A stretch of 59,295 nt of DNA, counting the filler, from Sphacelaria rigidula (lineage: Eukaryota): the NCBI GenBank assembly GCA_964200075.2. It is 7 parts of 7 records of this genome, joined end to end, with 100 filler letters (N's around TTAATTAATTAA, not from the genome) between each part and the next. Parts side by side here need not be neighbours in the genome. Positions count along the whole stretch, not along the records: positions 25,458 to 33,842 come from CAXNAA020011312.1; positions 33,943 to 42,327 come from CAXNAA020011313.1; 5 more parts are not named here. The stretch is one strand, 5' to 3'. The translations under genes were made by a program, and so were the position numbers. The notes beneath the pieces are model-generated. The model was not told the DNA's origin. It ran no database searches and worked only from the letters and a program-made list of their open reading frames with translations. How positions within the stretch are numbered: position 1 is the first letter of the stretch; the number at the start of each line of letters is the position of its first letter. This document shows positions 3,650 through 51,194 of this stretch, in pieces.

Positions 3650-6600
3650 ATATCGATATTAGTGCTAGTGCGAGTGCTAGAATCCTGCTGGGAAAGATTT
3701 TGGTAAGAGTTTGGTAGCTGTGGAAACCTGATACACCACGGACGCGTGGAGCGGGTTGCAGCTGAGGCAGCTGCAGAAAGGCGGCTGGCCTGTGATTAAT
3801 CCATACTGGAGACTTGCTGAAGCTGCGTGCAGCGGGAGTTAGGAGGCTCCTACGACTGTGTGGTGCGGCAACGAGGCAAGGAAGTGTGCAATTCGCGAAA
3901 GTCCGCTGGCCTGTGAAATTTCGCAGGTAGCTGGTTGCAGCTACGCGTATGGCGACCGGTTCGTGTACTACGACCAGCGTGACGCCCGTGGTTATGCGAG
4001 AAGAGTTGCGACCTCCCCAATACGGGGATATGTACACAGAGATGCATCTCGCATTTTTATTACCAAGTACTTTCAGTACAAAAAGCGTGCGAAGCACGCT
4101 AACGCAGGGGGTGTTGTGCGGCATCAGGTGGTGTCAATGGCTAAACAAGTGCCAACCTCTGTGCAGAGAGTGTTTGCTCGTTTGGAGCATAAAAAAATCA
4201 CAATCACGCCCCCGCAATTGGTTGCGGCGACCAGAAAGCATGCTGGGCATGCGGCGGGCACTTGCCAATGTTTTGGCCAGGTCGACCATTACGCGCGCGA
4301 TTGCCCAACGTCTTCCGGTGGAAAGTCTGGGCAATCTCATGCCCCGCGCCATCAGCATCGTCAGCACAAGGGCGAAAGACGAGGTAATCGTGGTGGCGGC
4401 GGCGGATCCTTCGGCGGTGGAGGGTCTCAGTTGAGTCCTCAGCAGCAGGAGCAGCAGGAGCAGCAGCAGGGGCAGCGGCGTCAGCATGGGTCTGGTTCAG
4501 AGTTCGGCGCCGCTGTAGATGCTGCTGCTCCACAACGGGCGGTGCAGGTGGGACCGACTTCTACAATGTCGAACACTGCGCCGGCGCCGGTGGTGGCGCC
4601 GGTGGTGACACCGGCAGCAGCGCCAGGGGCGATACCTGCTGACGCGCTCGTCGGAGGTTCGCCAAATTCTTGGTCTGCTGGCTGGGGGTCATACCCGCCG
4701 GCGGTGCCGTTTGAACATGCCAGGGCGTCTTCACCTGCTGCACAGCCGTGGCGTCAAGTGGGATTTGCAGCGCATCGGTGGGCGAATATATTGCGAGTGG
4801 AGTCCGCGGACAGATACGTTTCTGTAGAGCTGTTTCCCAAATCAACGGGAGCGTGGAGCTATTGAGGTTCAGGCTAAGTGGGATTCTGGCGCCCACTGGA
4901 CGGATCATTTGAGTCTGTCCGTACAGATTGTAGAGGTGTTGGAGAGTCTTCTCCCAGCTGTGCCGCTGCGCATTGCGTTTTCGCTCGGGGCGCGGCAGGC
5001 CGTCACCACGTCGGTCAGCATGTTTACGTCACAGAGCGTACTGTTCCGCTGCAACTGACTCTCACGACTTCCTGGCGGCCGGCGCCGTTGCCTCCGATCT
5101 CGTTTGCGATCATGCCGGGATCGGATGGCGTTATTCTTCTGGGGTTGCCGATGCTTCAGGATATTGGAGTCAACGCTCAGCGACTGTGGGGCTCCATGAA
5201 GACGCGGATATCTCCGCCTGGTCCACGCTCGGAGACGCCCGCCGTTTCGGGCAGTCGTCGCGTGAGCTTGTCGTTGGATGCTTTTCAGGAGGCTGGAGGG
5301 CAGGTGACCGAAGAGCACGATGCGGCGGTGGAACGCTCGGTAGAGCACGGCCCGAAGATGTTGATGATTCCGGCAGGAGAGGAGTCCGCTCGGAAGGTCG
5401 CGCTGGAGGAGAGGGTGACGGATGCTGCTGGGGCGACAGGCCTCAGCGTTTCACAAGCGGAGCGCCTGCGCGGCATATTGCATTGCCGCGTCAACGCGTT
5501 TCGTCGTGCGCTGCGGGGTGATCCCCCTGCGTGCGTGGAGCCCATGCGTATATAGCTAAAACCTGGGCGTCTGCGGCGAAGACGAAGCCGCGGCGGAACG
5601 ATCCGGTGAAGTCGAGTTGGTTGGCGTTGTGCATGGCGGTTCGTTTGGCGCTCGGGTTGGTGTTACGAAATCTGCAGGCGGGGTGGTCCAGTCCAGATAT
5701 GGCGTTTCCGAAGAAGGCTGCATCGTGGACGGAGGGCAGGCTGCAGGCGTGGGCGGGAGCGAAGGATCTGGTGGCTCATGCCGTGACGCTGTTCCATCCT
5801 CGTCCTGATTGTCAGGTGTTTATGTTTCCGGATGCATCTGAGTGCCATTGGGGTAGTTTGGTCAAACAGGTGCCTGATGTTGAAATTCAAATGCCTGTGC
5901 AAGCTGTGGCTGTGTATGGTTCGTGTGAACCTGATGACTTGATGCCATCCAAATCTGTGGTCCGCCAAGCGCAACGAAAAAACCGTGGGGCCAAACATGC
6001 GCATGTGCAATCTTTCGAGTCGGACGTTGGTACTGCTATCTTGGATAATGAAGATCTGTTTCGTGTGCATGTGCGTGGCCGAAACGTGTTGTGGGTTCCG
6101 AGTTCTGACAAGCAGTTGCAGGTACGTCTGATGATTTGCGCGCACATGCGCGACGCCCGGCATCGTGGTGTGGCTGCGACGCTCGTGCGCTTGCAAAAGG
6201 TTTGTGTATGGCAGGGGATAGAAACTCACGTGCGTGAATTTGTCTGCCGGTGTCTTCACTGTGCTGACTCGAGGGCGGGCGATGTTGTTCCCCGCCCAGT
6301 CGGCGAAACGGTCCATGTGGCCACGCCGAATGAAGTTGTTCATTTTGACGTCTTGTACGTGGGCGAGAGTGGCCCGCTAGCTTCCCAACGTTTGTCGGAG
6401 GATGCTGGGTTTCGATTCATTTTGGTAATTATGGATAATTTGAGCAACTTCGGGTCTCTTGAACCAGTAGCGGTGTGTACTCCTGAATCGACCGCTGCAT
6501 CTTTGCTGAATTGATGCAAAAAATTGGGGGTGCCGCGTGTGTGGGTGAGTGATACCGCCGCGCATTTCAAGAAAGCGATCTTGGCCCGATTGCGAGAGGC

Positions 6601-8386: not shown

Positions 8387-8486
8387 NNNNNNNNNNNNNN
8401 NNNNNNNNNNNNNNNNNNNNNNNNNNNNNNTTAATTAATTAANNNNNNNNNNNNNNNNNNNNNNNNNNNNNNNNNNNNNNNNNNNN
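8387..8486. other. Artificial contig-concatenation linker (N44-TTAATTAATTAA-N44); identical linkers at 16873-16972, 25358-25457, 33843-33942, 42328-42427, 50812-50911
   Basis: Six identical 100-nt spacers carrying a six-frame stop sequence. The intervening segments have non-increasing lengths of 8386-8384 nt. Confidence 0.97.
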
Positions 8487-15500: not shown

Positions 15501-18500
15501 TAATCAATCAACAATCAACACTATGGCGCCTGATTGTGATCCATATTTATCTTGCATATACAATAATCAACGACGATGGTTGAAATTACGATCTATCATC
15601 AGACTTTTGCACAAATCACTCCCAACCCAAAAATAGAAATGATTGTTTAGTAGATAATTAACATATTCATATTAACTGATTAATTAATCAGAAATTGTTT
15701 GAGGATGGACAGTTGGGCGGTTGGTTGGGATCGAATTTTATTTTTTTGGACAAGGAAAAGACAAAATATATCGACTATCTCATTCCACATTTTTGTCCCT
15801 GCCCTGTCCCCCTCCAACGCACAATGATGACACGGACGACCCCGGGAACGCGAACGGGTTGTGAGCGAGAACAGGCGGGCATCGACTGACAGCGTGCACA
15901 GGCGCCCCAGCTTGCACTACAGCAGCAAGTGCTCCGACTGGAAATCGGCCCAGGCTGCAGAAGCGGAGCGATCGGCGCCAAAAGTGTCTGCCAACGTATC
16001 TCGGTAAGACTTTTCCCTTTTTTTTTTTTTCGGTGATACCTCAAAAAGAACCCCACATCCTGTCCCGCTACAGAACAGTGCGCAGGTTAATTAAAGCAGC
16101 ATGTTTTTTCTTCTTCTTTTTCATCGTTTTTATATTATTATTAGTCATTTATTAGGCTTGTTCGCGGAGGTGTGGATAATAACACATACCCGTGGGGACA
16201 ATTTTCCTCGACGAGAGAGTCGTGCTCTGGTGGGGGGGGGGGGGATGCGCAAGCTTTTTATGGGCCGGCGTACCGGAGTTTGATACGGGCCATCGTACAC
16301 TGGAACCAGGTACAGTTAGGATAAAAGTAGCTTCTGAGAGTGCGACGATTCTCTCGCAGACAAGCACCACAGAACGTGAAAAACGTCGTTGTGTTGTCTC
16401 GCAATTTGACAACACCTCGGACAAGTTTTTGGCGAAGAAAATGTAACCCTACCGCAGCACGACTCAAGGGTCTGTGTGGGACTTAACACCCCCCCCCCCC
16501 CCCCCCTTTCCTGGGGGCGGGGTGTGTTTCTTTCCCCAAGGGGTTACCNNNNNNNNNNAGGTCCCCCCACCGCAGCCAGCCTCAGGGGTCTGGGTGGGAC
16601 TTAACCCCCCCCCCCCCCCCGTTTTGCATGGGGTCGGTGTGTGTCTCTGAACGAAGGATGTAACCATAATAACCCCAAGTTAGGACGGATTTCGTGTCGT
16701 CGAATCCGGACAGTACATGAAAGTTATGTTTTTTTTGTGGTTTCCGTCGTCCAATGATGTGTAAACGAGAGGTGGGTAACTCTTGCAAACCCTTGGACAG
16801 CGTTTTTTTTTTTTTCAAGTGAATATTGATGCCGGTTCAGCAGGTGACCTACCCACGCGGTCAAAAGGGTAANNNNNNNNNNNNNNNNNNNNNNNNNNNN
16901 NNNNNNNNNNNNNNNNTTAATTAATTAANNNNNNNNNNNNNNNNNNNNNNNNNNNNNNNNNNNNNNNNNNNNGTTGTGTTTTCGAAAAACATCAACGAGT
17001 GCACTCGTCTCGACGAGTGACGGCTCGTCCGACGTATGGAAAGTTTCGATGTCACCAGCCAAGACTGCTGCCAAGATAATACAAACCCCCCCCGAACCGG
17101 CCAAAAGATTGCACGGAGGCGGTGATCGTCTATGCCTTTAGAGCTGATTGCGAGCTTCTACACGCCCTTCATGTGGTCGAAAAGCTGTAGACAGGCCCAT
17201 TACAGAGATTGCAACCGGTTTGTCGGACAATCTCCGGTGCACATGTTGGGGGAGGGGGGGGGGGGAGGCAACCTCTACAGTAGGGCCCGGGTCGATTAAT
17301 GACGTACCTGGTGCTTTTCCAGGGTTCTATTNNNNNNNNNNCTTCATGGGGTAGAAAAGAGGAAGACGGGCCCATAACAGAGATGGCAACGGGTTTGGCG
17401 GACAACCTCCGGTGCAGAGGGGGGGGGGGGGGGGGGGGGAGGCAACCTCTACAGTAGGGCCCGGGTCGATTAATGACGTACCTGGTGCTTTTCCAGCGTT
17501 CTATTGGGGTCCGACAGCATATGTTTCTTCAAGTCGACTGGGTTTCAGGACCCGGAGTGCCGGTGCCATGACCATTCTCTAATTTCTCCACAAGCGCCAT
17601 CAACAGAGCATGAGCTGTGGGATTTTCGTTCACATAAGCACCATATTCTGCTCGCCCTGAACGGGATGGCCAGATATGTGCACAGTCGACACTGGAATAA
17701 ATTGTGAGTGGAGCTGGGGGTGGACAAAGTGAAATTGAGGTATACATGTAGGAGACGATGTCCCCTAGTCGCGCTTCTTGTGGCCAATCGTGCCCCAAAG
17801 AATATCAATGACGTTTACTGTTCGGTAAATTTCCCGATGTGGATTAATTACTGTTGGGAAATATTAGAATGGCGCCCGCATCACATGTCCAGTACCAATG
17901 TACCGCGCCGTATTCGGAACGGTTTTCGATGTGAGACAAAACATAGTGAGTGACTTCCGATCTCGGGTTTCGATGTCTGCCCCTCTTCCGCATCATGCTA
18001 CCAACAAAGCTCCCGGCTGTAGAGGAGCAATATATTACGCTGGACGCCAAACAGGCGATTGTTGTGAAAGAGGATCCGTCCATTTCCATTCTTGGCCCGA
18101 TGGAGAAAAAATTTACAGCACCCTCTTTGCTGTCGTCATTCGTTTGGGGATAATTCTTCGGCGGCACGCCATGTCATTTACATCCTGTAAAGCGTCAGCA
18201 AGCGTTGCTTGGTTTGCGGGGGAAGAACACACGGCAGGCGTTTCCCCTCACAATTATAGTTTTGTGGCAAGTACAAGACCGAAAAACAAGAAACTAATGG
18301 GCACCTGGCAGTACAAAACAACAGCCACCTATCTATGCAAGTTTTGTAGCCCCCCGTCTAGAGGAAGGACCGCATTCTCGGGAATAAAGCGAAGACGTAT
18401 TTCCCGAATGCAAGGGTGGTCGAGGTTGCCGAGTATCTCCCACAACAGTACTCGAGATCAACACTACAGACATGAGTGAAAGACTAACGCATCTCCCGAT

Positions 18501-25126: not shown

Positions 25127-25457
25127 GTGTGACGGTGTATTTGATCGGTTCGTTGACTGCATGTTTGCTGATGCTCACTTCGATTCGTCTTTGAATAACA
25201 CCACAACAAACAGAATGGTGCCGACTGCACGACATGCAGCATTTGTTAGCGCGAGAAATGCGCACTGCCATCTTATGTTTGTACAGGGGGGGGGGGGGGG
25301 GGGGGGGGGGGGTGGCGGGGTTGAGGGAGGGGCATGTGTGTGGGGGGGGGAGGGGGGNNNNNNNNNNNNNNNNNNNNNNNNNNNNNNNNNNNNNNNNNNN
25401 NTTAATTAATTAANNNNNNNNNNNNNNNNNNNNNNNNNNNNNNNNNNNNNNNNNNNN

Positions 25458-25600
25458 CTAAATCTAATTTTTATGACGTGTAGTAGTTGTCAAATGCGAC
25501 CGCCAAATGAATAAATGGAATCATGTTTCGAAGATTTGGCGTGGATACGGGGATTTTAATTCTTCGGGTTCTCATCTCCCAGCGAAAAATCCATCCCCAA
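25458..25600. mobile_element. Diverged right arm of the palindromic MITE family (copy 3)
   Basis: Aligns by eye with 1575-1711 (GTGTAG.AGTTGTCAA...TGTTTCGAA...TTCTCATC...ATCCATCCCCAAT). Confidence 0.75.
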
Positions 25601-25732
25601 TCAGGGGGCAGGGCGGAGAATGTTTTCGGACACGTAACCCCCCCCTCCCTCCTCTCACGGAGGGCATTTATTAAAAAATTGTCATGATTTTAAATGTTTT
25701 TTTTTGTCAATTTTCTCGCAAGAAATTGATCA

Positions 25733-25946
25733 ATAGAGGTATCTCCAACTCAGTTTCCGGTTTCCTGGTTTGTGCATTTCCTTTTTCCGAGTGAAAGCGA
25801 TGGTGATGCATGAGATGATGATTCCTTTTGACCGCCAGGTCATGTCCTCCCATGAATCGCCATCACTTTCACTTGAAAAAATAGTACAAAACCCAGAGAC
25901 AGCGAATAAACCAAGAAACCGGGAACCGAGCTTGAGATATCTCTAA
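25733..25946. repeat. Degenerate inverted repeat pair (~40 bp arms), probable old MITE
   Basis: TAGAGGTATCTCCAACTCAGTTTCCGGTTTCCTGGTTT versus AAACCAAGAAACCGGGAACCGAGCTTGAGATATCTCTA. Confidence 0.55.
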
Positions 25947-26297
25947 TAAACACCGTTTGCATATTTCTCTTAATTTTGTTACAAGAAATTGGTTAATAAA
26001 CAATGACGAAAACCGAAAAGTCTGGTGGGCTTTGCGGGGTTTGCATATTTTCTTCTGCTCCTCAATATATATATTATATAAGGTTATATAACATATATAG
26101 TATAAGGAACATATACACTGTATATAGTATGAAAAATACGATATATACATAATATATGATATATCACGGAGCAGAAGCATATGTATAATACATGGTAAAT
26201 AATAAATTATACAATATAATACAATATATAATACATGATACATGATGCATGATAAATCATATATAATTTGCAATACAAAAAATATATATCATGTACA

Positions 26298-27202
26298 TGT
26301 ATCATTTATCGATTTTCACCACCTCTGCCGAGTTTTCTTTGGCGGCAAGGCATCTTATCCCGCGCTTTCTTTTCCAGTGCACGAAAAAGGTGCAGCGGTA
26401 TATTACTTTTCAGGTGTGGGTGTCATCTGATACCTGTGGCGCGTGTCCTGACCATCGAAAGTCGCCCACACTGGCTCTCTTTCGCGGGGTGTCGATCTCA
26501 AACCACATAAGCCTCCTCAAGTCCATGCAAAACTTCAAGCAGCAGGATGATTGTTGGCGGGGTATTTCCCCCCCGTGTTTCCCTTTGCCGGCTTCTCGTT
26601 CATTTGGGAGCACGAACACACCGGTTATGCCGCCAATGTCACGAGAATATGAGAGCAATGCAGCTGAAAACAACTGATCATTGCCTTGGCCTTAGTCAGC
26701 AGCAAACAAACACGGGATCTTACCAACAAACTGGCGATGGATCTTTCATTGGGGATGAGAAACCCGGAAAATTAAATCTTCGTATCCACACCAAGCCTTC
26801 CAAATATGGTTCCATTTCTCCACCTAATGATAGCTATTGACAACTGCTACACGCAATAGAAAAATGGATTTCGATCACCGAAATGTTGGGGTCCAAGGTG
26901 AAAAAACAATTTTTGGGAATTCCGGGCGTCCGAACGGACGCCAAAATGGTCCCGATTTTTTTTCTCATCTAGGACCCCAAAATTTCGGTCATCAAAATCC
27001 AAATTTCTATGGCATGTAGCAGTTGTCAACAGCCATCAGAAGGTGAAGAAACGAAAGCATATGTTGAAGATTTCGTGTGGATACGAAGAATTTAATTCTC
27101 CGGGTTTTTCATCCCCGATAAAAGATCCTTCTCCAATCTGTAAGATTCCGTCTTAACACCAGACCGTGCGATGAGCCGTTGACGAGTTGAACAAGGCGCA
27201 CA
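26298..27202 (+). repeat. TA-microsatellite-flanked interspersed repeat (copy C), carrying a nested MITE
   Basis: Homologous to 52500-52960 and 28682-28920. Confidence 0.8.
26709..27154. mobile_element. Near-fully palindromic MITE (copy 2)
   Basis: Termini AACACGGGATCTTA / TAAGATTCCGTCTT; 4-bp TSD AACA (26705-26708, 27155-27158). The empty paralogous site is at ~52905-52915. Confidence 0.92.
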
Positions 27203-28681
27203 CGTGGGCAAACGTCCCCACTGGGGGTCACGTGTGTAGGCTCAGCAAAGGGGGGTGCCAAAATCCCTGTGATCATGCCATAACAGAGAGTTCCCTCACA
27301 GGATGCACCTGTGAAGTACAGGCGCAGGGATGTCCTTGTGTCAGGGTTGACAGGTTTGTCCTTGTGACAGGGATGGCAGGAAGAATCATACGAGTACGCA
27401 CCCTATGTATCTTTCGACGGCTTCGTACTGTATTTTCAGTACAAGTCAAGCGTTACTTTGCATGTAGATTTCTCCGCCATGTCTGAACGAAGGAGCCTGA
27501 AACTTGGCACAGAGGTAGACCACAACACAGACAGCATATTTACGGATCGGCGGCACGTTTTACGTGGTGCGCCAGACGCACGAAGCGAATACGTATTTCG
27601 GGCTATGCAATCGATATGCCCTCAAAACGGAGTCCACTCGGCCCAGACTGCGTGAGACGTCAGTGAATGCATATGTGGACACGCAGATGCGCTCGGCAAA
27701 TGAGGGTCTTCATTATCGAGAGATAAAAAAATGGGTGAAGGTCTAGAATTTCGGCAATCGCCTAGGGCTCGTAATTATCTAGATCTACTGTTGTTGTTGC
27801 TGTTAGATATCTCATTACAGATGGTGCTGATCTCATCGTTTAGCTTGCTTTCACCGGCAAAATAAAGGACAGGGTTATGCTACCTGCCCGTGTATGGCGT
27901 TCATAACTGTGGTAAACACCTTTCTCACAACCTCTCTGTGACACGAGTGGGCAGTCGGACAGGCTAGGGCGTGATCGACCGGCTCCCTCGGGATGCTGCA
28001 GCAGCACACATGAGTAAAAATGCCGACTGTAGAAAGTCCTGTGCATAGATTGCAGCATGCTTGCTTTCTGAGAGCTGTACGCACACTCGTAGCAGCACTG
28101 CAGACTAGTAGGTAGCTACTGAATTGTTTCTGCTCTTCACTTCAAAAGTGCGCATGTCTGCAAACGGAGACTACCGTGCTTGGCCCCGACAGCTCCAACA
28201 CCGCTGCCGGGGCACATATCGTCTAAGGAGGTAGATACCGCCAACCCGCGGTACTTTTTACTCTACGGCATAGCCCAGGGTATCATTAACAAGGTTCCTG
28301 ATGATTCTCGAATGCTTGCAAGCGCCACGGCGTCCGCCAAGGACAGCTCTGCGGAGTATTGGGCTACGGTCCGAAATATTTGGTGTTCGCCAACCGTGAA
28401 GGTTTGGCGAAAAAATCTAGCTGCTTCATTTTCGGAGAACGCCAAGCGCCAGGTGCGAAAACGCCTGAAGTCTTGGTGATCTCCGGAAAAACGGTGTACT
28501 GTGTCGATAATAACGGCCCTACCCTAGCCCTATATACAAGCATCGATCCGTATTGGGCACACTCTGGATGATGTCATTTTCCGCGGTACCTATCTTGGTA
28601 TCGCCTGTGGAGGTACTCATTTCAGCAGGCACGGTCGTGCAAGCGCTGTCAGTGCTTAAACACGCAATGTATATTATGTAA

Positions 28682-29002
28682 ATGTATCATTTCACATTTT
28701 TCATCACTTTTGCCGAGTTTTCTCTGGCGGCAAGGCACTTTTCCCCACGCCTTCTGCCGCAGCGCACTGAGTAGGCTCAGCGGTACATTACCCTTCAGGT
28801 TTAGGCGTCATCTGATACCCGTGGCGCGTGTTCGGGCCACCGAAAGTCGCTGAAACTGGCCCTTTTTCGCGGGGTGTCGATCCCAAACCACAAAAGCCTC
28901 TTCAAGATCGTGGAAAGCTTGACAAAATATATATGAAATATTAAATTTCGACTTGCGTCACCCCCGGGAGGCCTGTACCAACCTCCCGTAGGGGAACCTT
29001 GT
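28682..29002 (+). repeat. TA-flanked interspersed repeat (copy B, internally deleted) with 3' GC hairpin; Helitron-like
   Basis: Shares its 5' ~230 bp and 3' ~55 bp with 52500-53360. Hairpin CGGGAGG-N10-CCTCCCG at 28965-28988, close to the end. Confidence 0.7.
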
Positions 29003-30609
29003 ATTATATACTATAATGTACAATATATAATACACCACATACATGAAGATCTCTAGTGTCCACAAAAACAGCTGACCGCATCCACCAACGCTTCGGCAAT
29101 GAACCAGGGGACACACGGCTGGGTGTCCCCCCCCCCCTCCCCCGCAAGAACTCAAATTTTCGATCTTGGGGCCTACGTGTCCTGGATTGTGTTTTCGCTG
29201 CCCCCTGCCCCAATTTGTAAAATCCCCTGTTATCGATACAGACGGGTCGGGCCGTGATCTGCATGTGCAGTATATAACAGCGGATCCTGAAACATGGGGT
29301 CCATCTAAAAAATGAGGTTCAAGTGGCATTTCTCTTTTGCAGGGATGACGCGAAACACTTACGACCGAGCGAAGCCATCTTTCCCCCCAAATGTCCGCAG
29401 CAGGGAAGCAGTTGTGGCTAGGTGCACCGACGAATGCGGTGTACACGCGTGTCGATTACGATATCACCAGAGAGAGAAGCAACGACAGAGAGGAAGCTCT
29501 TCGCCCGTGTCCTTTGTGCGTCCTCGCTCGGCGATTACCAACCGCTGGAGAGACTGGCATCATCGATGTTACCAGCATGTACCCAATTTTCCATGTGCTG
29601 AAATATCGAGCTGCGGAGAGATTTTCTCTCGTCTTACAATTGCCTGTCGAGCTCATGAATGCAAAGATCGACTTCTCTCTGCCTCTCCTTTTGGACAGGC
29701 TGCGCCCCTGTGCGCTGAAAAGCATGTCGTTGAAAAATAGGACAATGTTCCCGTCACCGCTACTACTCTTCTCTGTCACACACATACCAGCGAGGGCGGT
29801 GGTGCGGCGAAAACAACAGATGTATCCCATTTGAACTGGGGGGGGTGTTATTCATCGTTGATTTTACCCGACATGTATGTGAGCGACCCTCTGGGTGCCC
29901 AACGACAACAGCGTGCGAGACGCCAGTTGGGGGGGGGGGTATGAGACGTCAAACACTTGTGGAGACCTTCTTGACATGCGGAGTGAAAAAAGATACCTAT
30001 GGTAGTGATCTAACCGTTGCGAGCGTGGTACAGAGGGGTGCGTCCATGCTGCAATCTGGAGCACGCGCTGGCTGCGTGAACACCTCGGTACACAAGCTTT
30101 CAAGAATGAATTTCGATGTGGTGAGGTCACGCGTCACCACCTGGGACGACATATAAACCCACGAAGAACAAGGGTGCTCTATGATCAACGAGTTGTCGTT
30201 GCATTTGACACCCACGCCATCAACCGCCAACCTCAAAGATCTTGTGACTTTCAAGCAACGCTGGCGACAGTACGGCAGGCAAACCCGATCATAGCTAGCT
30301 TTCGTCGCTCTACTGGACTGACTGGCGTCTGCATAGAGGTCGCCCGGCGTAGCAACATGTACCAAATGTTTCAATCTCTGTAAAAACAAAACAGTTCGTA
30401 TTTTCCAACGACGTGAACATGATTGAAATGACTCTAGTGGTCTGAGGGAAAGTGGCCGCTTTGGGTCCGTCCACACGTTCGAAGATACTGTAAAACAGCA
30501 ATACCAAACTTTCCTGACATGGGAATACCGCAATCAGTACAGAACGGAACAGAAATTGACGGTTTAACGTTTTTATTGGAAAGCAACGGGCATCAAACGA
30601 TTTCACACT

Positions 30610-30935
30610 CTGGACAATAAAATATGTTCCCAATATATATGAGTCGATGATATTAGAATACCGCGATATATTGCCGGCGTAATATATTATAGTGGATCCC
30701 GTGGACTGCACACGTATTGCGCACCCAATATATATTGGTGTCGTGGGACTGCAAACGTATTGCCCGCCCCATATATGTATTGGTACCGTGGCACTGTACA
30801 CATATTATCCCATCAATATATCGAGGCGGTGTGGGCGAAGACATATTGCACGACCAATATATATTGGGGTCGCATTGGTGAGAACATATTGACCGTTCAA
30901 TATATATTGGGTCCGCGTGGGTGCCAGTACATTGG
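30610..30935 (+). repeat. Periodic array (left): TATTG-N6-CAATATATATTG-N~19, period ~43 bp, ~7 units
   Basis: CAATATATATTG-type cores at 30631, 30726, 30855 and 30898 (spacings 129 = 3x43, and 43), with degenerate cores between. Confidence 0.9.
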
Positions 30936-32622
30936 TGTAGCACCATCATCACTGTTTTTTCACTGTTCTCGCAATACCGACTGTGCCATCCTGTATCACC
31001 ACACGGCATTGTCATGCACTGTGAGGATGGAGTGCCCTGGACCGTTTTACCCTAGGATACCACGGGACGACACTGTACTCGAAGGATTATTCACCATCTA
31101 CCTATACGCTTCGGCTTCAAGAGTACGCGAGACAGACAGTACCACTCTCATGCAGAAGAGAGACTGTACAGAACTATTTCAGAAGTCTGTGATACCGTGA
31201 GACGGTGGCCCCGATTTTGAGTTCGCGAATTTGATATTCGTTGCCATAAAACGTTATTACAAAATATCACCTACCCAGTATACATTGGGTGGGCGCGTTG
31301 ATGTCGGGTATATGTCCCACCGAACCATAATATTCAAGTACAGTAATATTACACTCTACCCCGTCCTGAAAGTCATGCCGTCCAACGAATGTCTCATTCA
31401 TTGTAATTCAAGAAGTACATCATTCAATATTTTTCTGGCGAGCAGGATATTTATAAGAGAGCCAGTTCGAATCAGTTCGAGAAGAAAAACGTAGGCGAGA
31501 GTACTGCGTCGTCTCTTTGGGATACCTCGACATATTGTTTTGAGGAAAAGTGATCCGATTCATTAGTCGCCTGACCCTTTGGCTGTGAATTTTTACGCTA
31601 GCTAATGAATCGGCATCACTCTTACTTGAAACAATGCCGTGTCCCAGAGCCAGCAAACAAACCACGAACGTCGGGGGTATTTCATACTGAAAGTTCCGGT
31701 ATTGTTTCCGGTAAATGACTTTTTGAAAATACCGGGAGTCTCAAGTTTGGTATGCCTCTGTTGTGTACGAGCTAGTCACCTCTCAGGGTATGTATTATTT
31801 TGTGGCTGTCAGCTGCAAAAAGGGTGAATGGCTGCCAGTTGCCCACGGAAAAATATTTGTCTGTGGCTCTCAGCTGTCCACGGGAAAACAGGTATTTGTG
31901 GCTCTCTGTCCCTCTACAGACCATCCGCCCACCACCCCCCTTCCTCCACCGCATAACGAAGGAGCAAGGCGATGGTTTGCGTACAAAGAAGGCATATTGA
32001 TCAATATGTCATAAAAAGTAGAGAATGAACGCATTTTTCTTCGTAAAGCTAGTCGGCCGACCGCCAGGGGCGAGTACTGAATGGTGGTGACAAGGTCAGA
32101 CGATGGGTGGAGTTGTGGGACCTCGCAGGGGTCGAGAAACACCTGTGCCGTCTTGCCGCGTCGATGGGTTTCGGCAACAACCCGTGTACCCGAGGGCGTC
32201 AAGACGGCAATCGCCAACATCTATGTTCTGCAGAGAATTCGGCTCTGCAAAGTCCCGCCAACCCCAAAGGCCATGCGATATTTCAAGTATGGTGTACGCT
32301 ATGAAAAGGTCCGGACGCCATGGATGCCGGAGCCCGTGCGGATAGGGAAAAGCTTGCATGAAGGGAAGCCGCAGAAGTTCTCGTCTGTGGCCACGGAGAG
32401 TTGTCGAAAGAGTCTGATTTATTTATTGGCCGGAACACATGGTGACAGAAGAGGCGACCCAGTATAAATGCTTTCTGATACCCATCTGCACAGCGGTGCG
32501 GTGCCGCCTATACTCTTCACAGTACGTAACATATCTTGGCTGAACTGTACCACGGCAGAATACGCGGGTCGATATGCGCCTTTTGGTACCCCTCTGGTCA
32601 CTGGTGCTTTGTTGCTTATACC

Positions 32623-33568
32623 ATGGACAATACGATATGTTCCAATATAATATCAATAGTTTATATTGAAGACAGTGTGAATATTTGCCTTTCAATATAT
32701 ATTATGTTCAGATGCCCTCGGAGACATTGAAGCGGCAATATATATTTATCGTGTCATGATCGCAAAGTAATGCATGGCAATATATACTGGACACGTTTTT
32801 GCTCCGGGAACACAACATTCAATATATATTGTGTATGCCGGCCGCGTATATATTGACGTGTCAATATATATTGAGTCGAAGCGATGCATAACGTATTGTT
32901 GTCACGATATATATTGAGCAAAAAAACATGCAAGAATATTGTTTTCCCGATATGTAATGCACCCGTTCATCTTTTAGCTATTGTGCAGCCGATATCTATT
33001 GAACACGCTCGCGGAGGACTATTTTGAGGGTTTTCGGCATCTGGTGATACATCTTTCACTAGCGCCCACGAACATGAAACTGCCCACCATACTAATTCCT
33101 ATATACTTTCCAATATGTATATTGAATCACCAATGTATATTGCTACACCAATATGCATTGTGACCGTCGGTTCCCTCGTGTATTGTTCTCCCAATATATA
33201 TATTGGACGCATTGACGCACGACATATTGGGGCGGCAATATATATTGGCGCATCGCGTGTTGAGTATATTGAATCGTCAATATATATTGACCTCGTGTGG
33301 CAGCCAATGTATTACTCGACAAATATATTATATTGGTGCCTTACCGCACCAACATATTACTCGGCGAATATATATTGAGGTGGCGCCTGTCGTGGTATAT
33401 TGTTCGGTCGATATGTATTGCACATCGTGAGCCTCGACATATTGATGACACAATATATATCGACCTGTCTCTCTTGCCATCATATTGCTCGCCCAATATA
33501 AATTAATCACCCGACGCGTTGACATATTGAGCGAGCAATATATATATATTACATATTGTATTGTCCAG
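32623..33568 (+). repeat. Periodic array (right): same unit, period 42-44 bp, ~18-20 units in two blocks
   Basis: Cores at 32693, 32736, 32778, 32820, 32862, 32905, 32948, 32990, then 33192, 33236, 33278, ~33320, 33365, 33409, 33451, 33494, 33536. Confidence 0.92.
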
Positions 33569-34024
33569 GATGTGAACGGTTTGCAGGTGGAAAACGCGGA
33601 ATTTGATAGAGGAGAACCTATATTATTTCCCGCGACTGTTACATTCGATTGCAAAATCTCTGTCGTCCTCCTTGTATGCCTGGCGGGGAAAGAGGGAAGC
33701 CACAGTTCCTCTGACCACTAGAGTCATTTCAATCATGTTCACGTCGTTGGAAAATACGAACTGTTTTGTTTTTACAGAGATTGAAACATTTGGTACATGT
33801 TGCTACGCCGGGCGACCTCTATGCAGACGCCAGTCAGTAGATNNNNNNNNNNNNNNNNNNNNNNNNNNNNNNNNNNNNNNNNNNNNTTAATTAATTAANN
33901 NNNNNNNNNNNNNNNNNNNNNNNNNNNNNNNNNNNNNNNNNNCCTCCTTCTTTGCTGCTGATGTCCAAAGGGCGCGGTCAATTCCGAATGTCTGGCGGTT
34001 GTCGTCCGTAGAGCCGTTGGACAA

Positions 34025-34442: not shown

Positions 34443-35525
34443 GGTCGCCCTGGTTGCTCAGTTGGTAACCTCGAAACTAGAGATGTACTCCGTTCGAATT
34501 TTTCAAACGGAGCGGATTACGGATTTCCGGCAGCCTTATCCGGATCACTCCGCGGATTGAAAAAAGTGGCGAATATCGGGATATCTGGACTTCCGGATGT
34601 CCGATTTGCAGACGGATTTCGAGGAAAACGAGCGATGGGCACTCCTCAACTCTCCCCACATGCACGCTGCGCATTTTCGGAGAGGTAGTGGAGGCTTGGA
34701 TCACGTATCACGAGTCAGACCCGCAAATCACATGAAGATTGCAGTGAAGAAGGTTGTCGTTATCTACTCATCGTGCCGGCGATGTGCACGAATAAACGCC
34801 TTTCCCATGGCAAACCGGAAGAACCAAGTCCGACCACAACATCCAACTTTAGGGAGGCCACTACAAACCAAAGCACTCGTGTGATGTGCTTCATGATCAG
34901 CTGCATCGGCTGCTCCGCGTCTTCTCGCGAGGACACAATCTACGATCTCACAACCAACTACTGGTGGCAACGATTCTGTCGGATTCTCTTCAATTGAGTG
35001 CCGATCGAGTTAACTTGTCGGCCGCCTCCCAAGAAGCGTTCAGAATCATCGGCGTCTCCGTCTGTTTCCTCGTTGCGTCATAACAAGCCCACTCTGCGGA
35101 AACACTCGCTCTGAGGGACTTGACGATGCCGGAACAGCCAGGGCGTTCCGAGCGACATGCGCAATGAGTTGGTACTTGTGCGTATTCAGCGCCCACCACT
35201 TGAGCGGGTTCTCGGTGATGGCCAGAGCAGGCTCCATCGCAATGTCCGAAATATATATATGAAAAAAAAGGCGGATTTTTTTCGCATGGGACAGATTAGG
35301 ATTGAAGTCAAACGGAGCGAATATCCGGAGTAGACGGAGCGGAGCACATCTTTACTCGAAACCTTCTGGCGGCTGGGTCGTGGGTTCGATCTCGGTGAAG
35401 TCGAACGATCTGGCATTTTTTTTCACGCCGTGCCCAACAGTAACGAGCGACTCTGTCGTGGGTACACAAAAGCTCGTCTTCACGGTCGACGAGGGAAAGC
35501 AGCCTTGTTCCTTTTCAAAAATATA
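34443..35525 (+). mobile_element. tRNA-derived SINE-like element split by a hAT insertion
   Basis: Rejoining the flanks of 34478-35354 gives GGTTGCTCAGTTGGTA (box A-like) ... GGGTCGTGGGTTCGATCTC (box B-like) at tRNA-like spacing. No complete cloverleaf. The 3' boundary is a guess. Confidence 0.55.
34478..35354 (-). mobile_element. hAT transposon deletion derivative retaining the C-terminal dimerisation domain
   Basis: TIRs TAGAGATGTACTCCG / CGGAGCACATCTTTA; perfect 8-bp TSD CTCGAAAC (34470-34477, 35355-35362). Minus ORF 35046-35237 NPLKWWALN...VARNALAVPASSSPSERVFPQSG matches the hAT dimerisation motif. CGGA/TCCG subterminal repeats. Confidence 0.93.
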
Positions 35526-42200: not shown

Positions 42201-44559
42201 GCGAAAATACGGACATTTGCGGAACTAGTGGAAGGGAACGGAGGGGGGGGGGGGGGGTTGGCGAGAAAAGGGGGCCCCGGGCCTAAAAATGCACCGGGGA
42301 ATTGCGGCCCTTGCGGGATATAAAAAANNNNNNNNNNNNNNNNNNNNNNNNNNNNNNNNNNNNNNNNNNNNTTAATTAATTAANNNNNNNNNNNNNNNNN
42401 NNNNNNNNNNNNNNNNNNNNNNNNNNNAGAAAATATAACGAACGTTTGATAAACAAGTAAAGCCCACCTTTGCTCGTTTTCCCGGAAATGATTTCCCCAT
42501 TATCCCCCCCCCCCCCCCCACCCCCCCACCCCCCACCCCGCGCGCGAAATTACCAAAAACAATTTGTTGGCAGTTACAACGAGGACAATGAGGACGCCCT
42601 AGACGAGCGATACGGGGGCCCCGGCGCTCGTCCTACAGGCATGTATGAGCCAGCGTCAGGCCTCGGCGAAGCGCTATTGTGCTTTACGGGCCCGGAGTAT
42701 ATGCACATGGTTCTCAGGTGATAAAACCCCCCGGATAACTATATATATATATATATACCTATGTATTGGCGTGGTTGGTTGTGGCGGATGAACCTATGCG
42801 ATGCGACTTTAACGGCGGCTACAAGATATGTGTGTTCAGGGTGAAAATTCGGGAACAGTCGCTAGTGGAGGCACGAGGAAAGGGAACTACGGAGAGGCAA
42901 GGTAAACGGTAAGGGGGAGGGGCAGTGAAGGGGGTGTGCTAATGATCATGCATGCGGTAGTCGCACGAGTAAAACCATTGACCTCGCATCCCTAAAAAGC
43001 TGGGACGGAGCACCCGGTTTTCCCCGGACCAGGCTCGCAATTAATTACCGAGCGTGAAGCGCCGTGATGTGATCGGCGAGTCGCATAAAGGATGAGCTGC
43101 ATCCTGCTAAGAATATTCGGCCCGAAGCGTACTGATCGATTTGCATATGGATGACAGCCTACAATGAGTTACTTCACCGTCTGGTATCGCCACTTGCAAA
43201 GACAACCACGGGTTAGAGCCTGCCTCATGCGTGCCTCACCATTGAAACGCTACGTAGCACGATCATCCCCCTTGCGCGGAGTGCGGGCTCTCCACCCCGC
43301 ACAGTATGAGCCAGATCGACCACGATCATGGTTACCGCGAAAAACAAGCAGGCGTAACCCCCGCCCGGAAAGTTGGTTGCCTATTTACAGCTTACGCAGT
43401 AAGAGGCGTGTTTTACAGGGTCGCTGTCAAGCGACGCCAAGGCTTACAGTGGACATTGATTCAGTGATTTCGATTGATTGATTGCCGCACTTTAACTGAC
43501 CCTCCCCCCCCCCCCAGGGGTCCAGCCGTGGTCTCGTGATGGACGTACCCAAGAAAAACAAAACAGAAACACTCGCTCAAGAAAATATGTAATAAAAAAA
43601 AAAAGTCGAACAGAACGACATAGTGGACTAAGTGAGATGTAACAACAAAGGAACAACAATGAAAAAAAAAGCCAACAAAAGCAAAGCACAGAAATAGATG
43701 GCCGACCGAAAACAAGATAAAACAGGATAATAACAAGGAAGTAAAGGGTAAATGAAATAGAATAAAATAAGATGTTGGAAAAAAAAGAAGGGAAAAGCCC
43801 AAGGGATTCAGGGCAGCAGAGTAGATGCAGATACACACAGACCAGTGGGCACCGCAGAGCCACCGACGGAGGGCATAATCAACAACCGATTTGAGCAGAC
43901 AGGATTCTTCGATTGGCAGCCCTCGACGCAGCAGCCTCTCGCTTGTGACGGCGGTCTGATTCTCGTTTGTCCGCGCGTCGCCACGAGGCGAAAGGAAGGA
44001 GAGGGAAGGGGAGTCAGCAAGATGAGAGGTAGGCTAAGATCCTGTACGGGTGCCGAAATTGAAGGAAGAAATGGAGGAATGCGAAGAAGAAAATAGGAAG
44101 CCCGACGGGTCCCTGCCGCATGGCTGCAGTTAATGACGCCGCACAAGAGCAAAACAATACAAAGCAACCCCGTCGGAGCAGTTTCCGAACTGGACATCGA
44201 CCAACCATATTACGTCGGTAGTAACTCTCAGCCGCGAATTCTGCGAGAGCAGGATATAACAAGTGAAACGGAATAAAAAAAAAAAAGAAACCCTACGAGT
44301 AGAGAGAGATGAGATGGAGAGAAACGAAGGAAGATTGAAGAACGGGAGGAGCAGAAAAGGAGAGTTAGAGCAGAAAATGAGGCACTCGGAGACAAGAAAC
44401 AAAGCAGGATATGCGTGTCCAGCAAGACAGCTAGGCAGCATCGCTGAAATTGCATGCCAAGGACAGAGGTCGACCACCGATAGAATGAGAGGCGGGGGGT
44501 ACGTGCTACCACCCTCTCCGCGTATCCGTGGTCAGAGGCAAAGGGGGCGACTCTCTCGA

Positions 44560-49811: not shown

Positions 49812-50293
49812 CTCTGGACAATACAATATGTTTCCAATATATTTTGGTCGATCATGTTGGAATTTTGCGATATATTGCCGGCGTAATATATATTGGTACC
49901 CTTGGACTACTCACGTATTGCGCGCCTAATATATATTGATGTCGTGGGACTGCATACATATTGCCCGCCCAATATATATATTGGTACTGTGGGGTCGAAC
50001 ACATACTGTCCCATCAATATATATTTTGGCAGCGTGGACGACAGCATATTGCATGACCAATATATATTAGGCTCGCATTGATGAGAACACATTAACCAGT
50101 CAATATATATATTGAGTCTGCGTGGGTGCCAATGTATTGGCCGGTCAATATATATTGGATATTATAAGTATGGTGTACGCTTTAAGAAAGATCCAAACGC
50201 GATGGATGCCGGAGCCCGTGCAGATTGGGAAAGCTTCAAAGGGAGCCGCAGAAGTTTGCGTGCATTACTACGGAGAGTAGTCGAATGCGTTTA

Positions 50294-50560: not shown

Positions 50561-51194
50561 ACTTCGTATTGGAGCCAGCTGGAATGTTAGAGAGTTTCGG
50601 GAAAAAAAAAACAGAACTCAGGGATGAAAGCGAGAACGACTGGATTATTTACGCTTAAACCCCAGGTTTGTTTTATTTATTTTTACCACGTAGGTGTGGA
50701 CCGTGGCCAACTTTTCATTTCAGGGTTTAGTCTTTTCTGTTCCGAATGCCACGTGGTCGGTGTCATGAGTTGAAAAGGTACAAGTCGCGCCGTGCTTTTC
50801 TGCGCTTGTACNNNNNNNNNNNNNNNNNNNNNNNNNNNNNNNNNNNNNNNNNNNNTTAATTAATTAANNNNNNNNNNNNNNNNNNNNNNNNNNNNNNNNN
50901 NNNNNNNNNNNGTGTCCCCTAGCGCGACTCTGTACACGAGTCACCCTACCCATCCGGGCGTCGGCCAAACGGGCGTTCTAACGTACCCTCAGGCTCACTG
51001 GGAATCGAGCCGCATTTTATCCCCATCGGCATAAAAAGTATCGATCAGCCTATTCGACAGCCACATGGACGCAGTTTCATGCCGATCGGCATATATGAGC
51101 CTTGCCCACAAAGAGTATTTAATCCTTACGCACAATCTTATCGAACTGATGTCAATGCCGATCTGCATGGTTATGCGGATCGCCCTGTTCAGCG

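Follow-up and report, generated by a model that had tools for sequence, protein, structure and literature searches.

Short motifs repeated just inside the ends are familiar from transposons of the hAT superfamily, in which the Ac hexamer and the Hermes octamer are needed for, or bound by, the transposase. In known hAT elements such subterminal motifs are irregularly spaced and of mixed orientation, and classical subterminal sites are mirrored at the two transposon ends. Ends filled with tandem repeats occur in Drosophila FB and, in the partial account available, in Galileo of the P superfamily. A short subterminal motif in many repeats, needed for or bound by the transposase, is also described for the hAT elements Ds, Tgf2 and Kat1 in the accessible portions of the respective reports (PMC3260210, PMC4890040, PMC4763223). 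For the Kyakuja-Dileera-Zisupton (KDZ) superfamily, represented by Ectocarpus KDZ-1 to KDZ-5 and KDZ-N1 and by Cryptococcus KDZ1, the available parts of the descriptions give 8-bp target-site duplications (TSDs) and complex ends that include tandem repeats or are themselves repeated in tandem. Here we describe an array-bearing element at positions 30604–33574 of a 59,295-base stretch of Sphacelaria rigidula DNA (the window). We consider it probable that its two periodic arrays are the subterminal regions of a gene-less 2,971-bp cut-and-paste transposon, inserted in another repeat, and that they serve as phased transposase-binding sites.

With hAT elements (maize Ac/Ds, Hermes, Tol2/Tgf2, Kat1) the element shares an 8-bp TSD, short terminal inverted repeats (TIRs) and the form of a non-autonomous, ends-only derivative. 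It differs from them in its strictly phased 42–43-bp units, every one with three half-sites, of which the left array has about 8 and the right array, at up to 0.95 kb, about 20, in the common orientation of both arrays and in the internal duplication of its left terminus. In Galileo and FB the arrays form long inverted terminal repeats, whereas the arrays described here run in direct orientation and the true TIR measures 24 bp; the TSD of Galileo is 7 bp.

Periodic arrays and the insertion that carries them

The window consists of seven pieces of 8,384–8,386 bp each and is not one contiguous locus; the array-bearing element lies in piece 4 (25458–33842) and a second copy in piece 6. Logan contigs from four public runs (X1, X3, X4 and X8) were aligned on 29800–33842 at a likeness of at least 80%; the public runs that match parts of the window carry the label 'algae metagenome'. 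The parts of the element and of its second copy are as follows.

30604..33574, + strand: array-bearing element, a 2,971-bp non-autonomous DNA transposon copy (empty-site joints, TIR, TSD, no coding capacity)
30596..30603, no strand: left TSD copy, AACGATTT (junction reading; the 8-mer is present once in empty-site contigs)
30604..30627, + strand: left TIR, CACACTCTGGACAATAAAATATGT (21/24 match to the reverse complement of 33551–33574; second-copy homology begins here)
30619..30935, + strand: left subterminal array, 8 motif matches, 6 well-formed 41–46-bp units (paralogue at 49823–50157 with the same unit order)
30936..32276, no strand: internal 1.34-kb segment (absent from the second copy; no protein signal; nested inverted-repeat unit inside)
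32277..32616, + strand: linker common to both copies, about 340 bp, ~73–82% identity (non-coding; every frame broken by indels)
32617..32640, + strand: decayed internal copy of the left terminus, TATACC-TGGACAATAC-ATATGT (direct orientation; opens the right array; present in the second copy)
32645..33001, + strand: right array, first block, ~10 units (motif scans)
33101..33550, + strand: right array, second block, ~12 units, three at 18-bp spacing (runs into the right TIR)
33551..33574, - strand: right TIR, reverse complement CACATCCTGGACAATACAATATGT (motif scan, junction reading)
33575..33582, no strand: right TSD copy, AACGGTTT (junction reading, contig joints)
49808..50587, + strand: second copy of the family, 3'-truncated (left terminus, 8-unit array, linker, internal terminus-like motif)

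The composite motif ATATTG-N6-CAATATATATTG was scanned with at most three mismatches, with 100 shuffles as the control, and the 12-mer core with at most two. The arrays are far beyond chance: the composite motif has 31 matches in the window against 0.04 expected, a number reached in 0 of 100 shuffles, and every one of these matches lies at 30714–30909, at 32681–33547 or in the second copy at 49872–50157. Of the 38 collapsed sites of the core, the left array holds 4, the right array 17 and the second copy 8; the remaining 9 lie outside all three. Core-to-core spacing in well-formed units is 41–46 bp, mostly 42–43 bp, and Tandem Repeats Finder reports a 43-bp repeat with 78% matches at 30682–30796 in the left array. 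Each unit of about 43 bp is built of three copies of one 6-bp half-site (ATATTG-N6-CAATAT-ATATTG), which form two overlapping palindromes of the kind that a dimeric DNA-binding domain would read. The few 18-bp sub-spacings arise where the closing half-site of one unit doubles as the opening half-site of the next, and the right array is interrupted by a core-free gap of ~100 bp at 33002–33100.

Within the units, both the sequence and the spacing of the half-sites are conserved, while the linkers of ~19 nt and the GC-rich N6 vary freely. Compared pairwise across 24 units, half-sites have an identity of 0.75 and 12-mer cores one of 0.78, as against 0.28 for both N6 and the 17-nt spacer, where 0.258 is expected from composition (58% GC). 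A sequence-only reading of this DNA had proposed arrays of fixed period, co-oriented and variable in both segments. The fixed period and the orientation were borne out: both arrays point the same way, with 25 of the 31 composite matches on the + strand and the other 6 being overlapping re-readings of the palindrome on the - strand. The variability held in part, since N6 and spacers are near chance overall while the spacers of the left array are partly related to one another (identity 0.36–0.40). Also as proposed, a terminus-type motif, TGGACAATA..ATATGT, opens both arrays at 30611(+) and 32624(+) and closes the right one in reverse at 33551(-); with two further matches in the second copy, at 49815(+) and 50527(+), it occurs 5 times against 0.15 expected. 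The array half-site ACATATTG forms the inner part of both terminal inverted repeats.

The limits of the element were read from contigs that lack it. Contigs from X1 (10), X3 (14), X4 (4) and X8 (2) join 30603 straight to 33588, skipping 2984 bp, and near-variants of this joint (30597/33588 and 30603/33591) were met as well; the outer sequence, with the region of the inverted arms, therefore occurs elsewhere in the genome without the array-bearing unit. The reconstructed empty site has AACGATTT once, followed by GCAGGT-type letters, while the filled site is flanked by AACGATTT and AACGGTTT, the latter followed by GCAGG. The TIRs are 24 bp long, with 21/24 positions complementary and ends CACAC...ATGTG, and the 8-bp TSD, met on one complete insertion, has 7/8 positions matching. 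Together, the 24-bp TIRs, the 8-bp TSD and the empty site are the signature of a cut-and-paste insertion. The array-bearing unit is thus a 2,971-bp insertion into another multicopy repeat.

The element had initially been taken to be bounded by a long inverted repeat. Three rows of the feature list bear on this point.

30317..30456, no strand: left 140-nt inverted-repeat arm, belonging to the host repeat and not to the array-bearing element (inverted-repeat search, alignment; host repeat in other contigs without the insert)
33699..33838, no strand: right 140-nt inverted-repeat arm, likewise of the host repeat (piece end 4 bp further on)
8387–8486, 16873–16972, 25358–25457, 33843–33942, 42328–42427 and 50812–50911, between pieces: linkers N44-TTAATTAATTAA-N44

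The 140-nt inverted repeat is real, its arms at 30317–30456 and 33699–33838 being 97% complementary, but it belongs to a separate multicopy host repeat, and the true element runs from 30604 to 33574. Features that reach a piece end are artificially cut, the right arm among them, and loose ends of contigs show that homology to the host repeat runs on to the left of 30317; for both reasons the 140-nt arms cannot be called termini. In a concatenated window, an inverted repeat that touches the end of a piece is not an element boundary. Just left of the inverted arm the host repeat varies by insertion or deletion, because a joint 30059->30297 and loose ends in 30045–30296 reveal other copies without ~240 bp present here. 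A run of ten G at 29931–29940 coincides with an extreme depth bin at 29935–30069, and the depth peak is probably a low-complexity artefact, not a super-abundant repeat. Depth values, among them the lower ones over 31150–32229, were left out of the evidence on copy number and on the ranking of parts.

Homology to the second copy starts at the same left terminus, with an unrelated left flank, and the second copy passes from its array directly to the homologue of 32277. The order of parts common to both copies is the terminus, an 8-unit array, the ~340-bp linker, a decayed direct terminus (TATACC.GGACAATAC.ATAT.T) and a further array. After this internal terminus the first copy has ~20 units up to the right TIR; the second stops after one unit. 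Among the variants listed, 32634 G>A is found in 58 X1 contigs, so that the family consensus at the internal terminus equals the right TIR core. Contig joints skipping 77–146 bp around 33049–33196 indicate that the interruption at 33002–33100 is missing in some copies, and joints inside the right array, which skip 624, 146, 86 and 77 bp, show that array length differs between copies. The family is multicopy, array positions in X1 being covered by 56–99 distinct variant-bearing contigs (99 at 33156, 79 at 33501).

The element has no coding capacity and is non-autonomous. No Pfam family was found above cut-off in open reading frames (ORFs) of at least 90 aa that overlap it, nor in any of 37 ORFs of at least 30 aa in 30900–32660, where only sub-threshold noise was seen. 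The sequence-only reading had likewise seen no effector gene, and neither an effector-like ORF nor a protein family was found in or beside the element.

Some further repeats were noted in and around the two copies. A unit of ~100 bp at 31533–31636 in the interior segment, with inverted arms of ~33 nt (~29/34 matched), has the look of a miniature element nested in that segment; contig joints stepping back by 101–102 at 31538/31639 suggest that it is tandemly duplicated in other copies. Just past the break of the second copy, and preceded by a poly-A run, 50619–50629 is an exact 11-base match to what we take to be the maize Ac terminal repeat; it may mark where a different (hAT?) insertion ends, one by which the second copy was truncated, or be a coincidence. 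Elsewhere in the window, a foldback-like family of palindromic repeats of ~440 bp is present at 1294–1729 (piece 1) and 26709–27154 (piece 4), its units 78–86% self-complementary and 80–82% alike between the pieces. A long terminal repeat (LTR) retrotransposon remnant at 3843–6514 (+) consists of consecutive long ORFs with a zinc-knuckle-like gag, an RNase H-like domain and an integrase zinc-binding domain (PF17921, E=2e-7); its integrase/RNase H ORF lies at 5522–6511.

Inheritance and decay of the array units

If the linkers differed between copies, other copies could not be aligned across an array. The left array of the first copy aligns with the array of the second unit for unit, linkers included, and contigs of 330–430 bp from other copies are colinear with the right array at ~15% differences with few gaps (~85% identity), which means that the linkers are alike between copies. 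Of 23 spacers compared with the rest of the window, with up to 2 mismatches allowed, three matched, each to its own paralogue.

Between the two window copies, 116/138 core positions (84%) and 148/181 other positions (82%) are identical (Fisher p=0.65). Decay after insertion thus falls on cores and other positions alike. The variants listed include 15 majority-variant positions in the arrays, and 8 of them bring this copy closer to the motif (30770, 30807, 32686, 32687, 33117, 33156, 33501 and 33505), so that the cores of the family consensus are cleaner than those seen here. Such a two-level pattern, with motif and spacing constrained in the transposing lineage and no constraint after insertion, is what would be expected of a transposon.

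Folded individually, six units did no better than shuffled sequence (z from -0.92 to +0.37); the whole right array folds at z=-4.5, a trivial result, since repeated palindromic cores pair with each other. The N6 bases beside the stem are complementary in 6/28 units, which is chance level, and no compensatory changes are seen in the stems. Conservation of the stems in sequence without covariation favours recognition of duplex DNA by a protein over a selected hairpin. A search of the element returned no Rfam match.

These results bear directly on a further suggestion of the sequence-only reading, that the arrays might resemble CRISPR arrays and be transcribed and processed into small guide RNAs. 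The layout fits, with short conserved repeats alternating with variable segments at a fixed period, and the likeness to CRISPR arrays ends there: here the conserved parts are 6 and 12 nt and the variable ones 6 and ~19 nt, spacers pass vertically from copy to copy as a set, associated genes are lacking and the genome is eukaryotic. That reading had itself named invariant spacers, a lack of external matches and a lack of phased transcripts as grounds for giving the idea up, and it had asked for spacer content and order to be compared between copies. Neither the second copy nor the colinear contigs of other copies depart from the spacer order found here, and the spacer matches in the window are paralogues; on its own terms, then, the suggestion fails. 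With single units folding like shuffles, N6 complementarity at chance and neither an Rfam match nor an effector-like ORF, we regard guide arrays as exceedingly improbable.

Superfamily assignment and competing explanations

An 8-bp TSD together with a short TIR places hAT first, and it is the most likely superfamily, at close to an even chance; KDZ comes second, with a clearly smaller share, and other or undescribed superfamilies take the remainder. The hAT features seen here are the TSD (one insertion, 7/8) and the TIR of 24 bp (21/24). The autonomous Ectocarpus element hAT-2_Ec32 (Repbase hAT-2_ESi) is given CACAC-GTGTG termini and 21-bp TIRs in the available part of its description (PMC12477816), compared with CACAC...ATGTG and 24 bp here, a likeness in the listed termini. 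That hAT elements live in this genome is evident from a hAT C-terminal dimerisation domain (PF05699, E=8.5e-13) in an isolated ORF at 35046–35351(-), in which no other transposase exons were recognised.

The families to which the sequence-only reading had likened the element (CACTA, foldback and Mutator-like elements, MULEs) fit poorly, given the 8-bp TSD and the direct arrays. CACTA/En-Spm was rejected: the termini do start with CACAC, but the TSD is 8 bp and not 2–3 bp, and a 3-bp model fails to reproduce the empty site. A foldback element needs inverted arrays; here both are direct, as the strand counts of the motif show. The exclusion of Mutator-like elements is a soft one, resting on a TSD of 8 bp and a TIR of 24 bp as against TSDs of at least 9 bp and long TIRs, and some MULEs do make 8-bp TSDs. 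In the sections available of the Ectocarpus study, EnSpm families have 2-bp TSDs, and MuDR-1 has a 9-bp TSD with TIRs of ~117 bp (PMC12477816).

Several observations weigh against a hAT transposon with phased binding sites. Both arrays point the same way, where classical sites are mirrored, a discrepancy softened by the palindromic cores. The termini do not fit what we take to be the hAT end consensus, YARNG, a poor fit that is offset by CACAC ends like those of hAT-2_Ec32. No transposase with these termini was found in a search confined to the window. No ATATTG-type arrays lie near the hAT fragment at 35046–35351, which is thus not the partner of the array-bearing element and is probably a remnant of a different hAT family. 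The TSD is read from a single complete insertion with a 7/8 match, and the comparison of cores with spacers rests on 319 aligned sites, so that weak constraint is compatible with the data. For hAT-2_Ec32 itself the TSD is only 'assumed' to be 8 bp in the text available, and there the Ectocarpus KDZ families share an 8-bp TSD and 'complex termini featuring tandem repeats' (PMC12477816).

It is accordingly possible, if on the unlikely side, that the element is of the same kind but is a non-autonomous KDZ element, or belongs to another superfamily with 8-bp TSDs. Tandem repeats do lie beside both ends, and at 32617 the left terminus recurs inside the element, together with an array and in direct orientation; the inverted part, however, is only 24 bp and the arrays are direct. 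According to the accessible text of the two studies, Cryptococcus KDZ1 makes an 8-bp TSD (PMC11343200), and the non-autonomous Ectocarpus KDZ-N1, at 2,159 bp, shows that a 2.2-kb form exists among otherwise giant elements (PMC12477816). On the same sources, Ectocarpus KDZ termini start with GGGG./CAGTA and not with CACAC (PMC12477816), and the TIRs of this superfamily are said to be long, with 236 bp for Cryptococcus KDZ1 (PMC11343200), compared with 24 bp here. Nor is there a KDZ protein signal in the window, where none of 228 ORFs of at least 90 aa matched KDZ.

The remaining explanations differ in what they take the arrays to be. A passive minisatellite, expanded inside a transposon without any role in transposition and with its AT cores kept by slippage or gene conversion, would account for the residual similarity of left-array spacers (0.36–0.40), for the 78% matches reported by Tandem Repeats Finder and for the array lengths that vary between copies (joints skipping 624, 146, 86 and 77 bp); tandem repeats in transposons are, moreover, common, several Ectocarpus families having them in the part of the study available (PMC12477816). 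Neutral divergence of units, however, cannot keep cores at 0.75–0.78 with linkers at chance (0.28 vs 0.258) and spacing at 42–43 bp. Slippage of (AT)n explains neither the conserved flanking C/G nor an upstream half-site at exactly N6, and the half-site is also found inside both terminal repeats, all of which makes a minisatellite rather improbable. Binding of the arrays by a host chromatin, replication or transcription factor, or their co-option as a regulatory or structural platform with the transposon only as a vehicle, is very unlikely. Against a background of 58% GC, regularly spaced 12-mers of A and T alone would be expected to influence where nucleosomes sit or to seat a dimeric factor, but cores decay as fast as linkers (84% vs 82%, p=0.65), which argues against host-level purifying selection on individual insertions, and the motif is also part of the termini. 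No likelier is a 3.5-kb element bounded by the 140-bp inverted repeats (foldback-, MULE- or CACTA-like), with the arrays as its own subterminal repeats. Its arms are 97% complementary and the arrays do lie between them, yet in contigs the arm flanks are joined with the 2,984 bp between them missing, arms of this type are lacking at the second array copy, and 30317 is no terminus, since similarity to the outer repeat extends further left; moreover, the right arm is truncated by the piece end and the interior has TIRs and a TSD of its own.

A phased protein-binding scaffold of a DNA transposon is the part of the sequence-only reading that is best supported, because the arrays abut the true termini and the TIR contains the ACATATTG half-site; the anatomy that went with it was wrong.

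Relatives were sought by exact pattern matching. The terminus-plus-core pattern has no exact match in viral_contigs and two in metagenome_contigs, both on contigs of 23–27% GC with no arrays and no BLAST similarity to the element; as relatives these AT-rich matches were rejected as due to chance. A two-unit pattern has no exact match in viral_contigs or in prokaryote genome_contigs. Such scans need exact matches and the collections are poor in algal nuclear sequence, so that absence from them means little. The 12-mer core was not found in literature text, and the core and both terminus 10-mers have no match in five supplements of PMC12477816, the FASTA libraries of that study not being among them.

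A candidate platform for cooperative end recognition

On the transposon reading, a transposase provided in trans would bind the half-sites through its DNA-binding domain. The 42–43-bp phasing amounts to about four helical turns, which is arithmetic and not a test, and would set successive sites on one face of the helix. Many protomers could then load cooperatively on the phased sites and bring the two ends together. Selection would act only in the transposing lineage, and inserted copies would decay neutrally.

A more speculative version, which we hold to be improbable, is that the element represents an undescribed algal cut-and-paste lineage whose transposase would assemble as a long cooperative filament on ~8 + 20 phased tri-half-site units. 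Under this version the number of sites may lie far above that in hAT, CACTA and P elements, for which a few irregularly placed subterminal sites are known, and the internally duplicated left end may act as an alternative terminus that spawns shorter derivatives. Bolder still, the host may have recruited the phased AT-only palindromes in GC-rich DNA as a platform for chromatin or replication.

The feature is a tidy example of an already known kind and opens no long-standing question; it is a nested multicopy transposon whose subterminal arrays are unusually regular. If the phased binding-site reading is true, the element would be a clean natural case of a transposon that encodes its own assembly platform, with sequence conserved only where the protein should touch and length conserved between: one 6-bp half-site in the TIR, then three per 43-bp unit over hundreds of bp. 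The Ectocarpus study, in the portion available, counts 51 'DNA/Unknown' families (PMC12477816). Should the reading hold, the family described here would be a useful marker for annotating the many unclassified DNA transposons of algal genomes and a convenient substrate for cooperative end recognition by an algal transposase.

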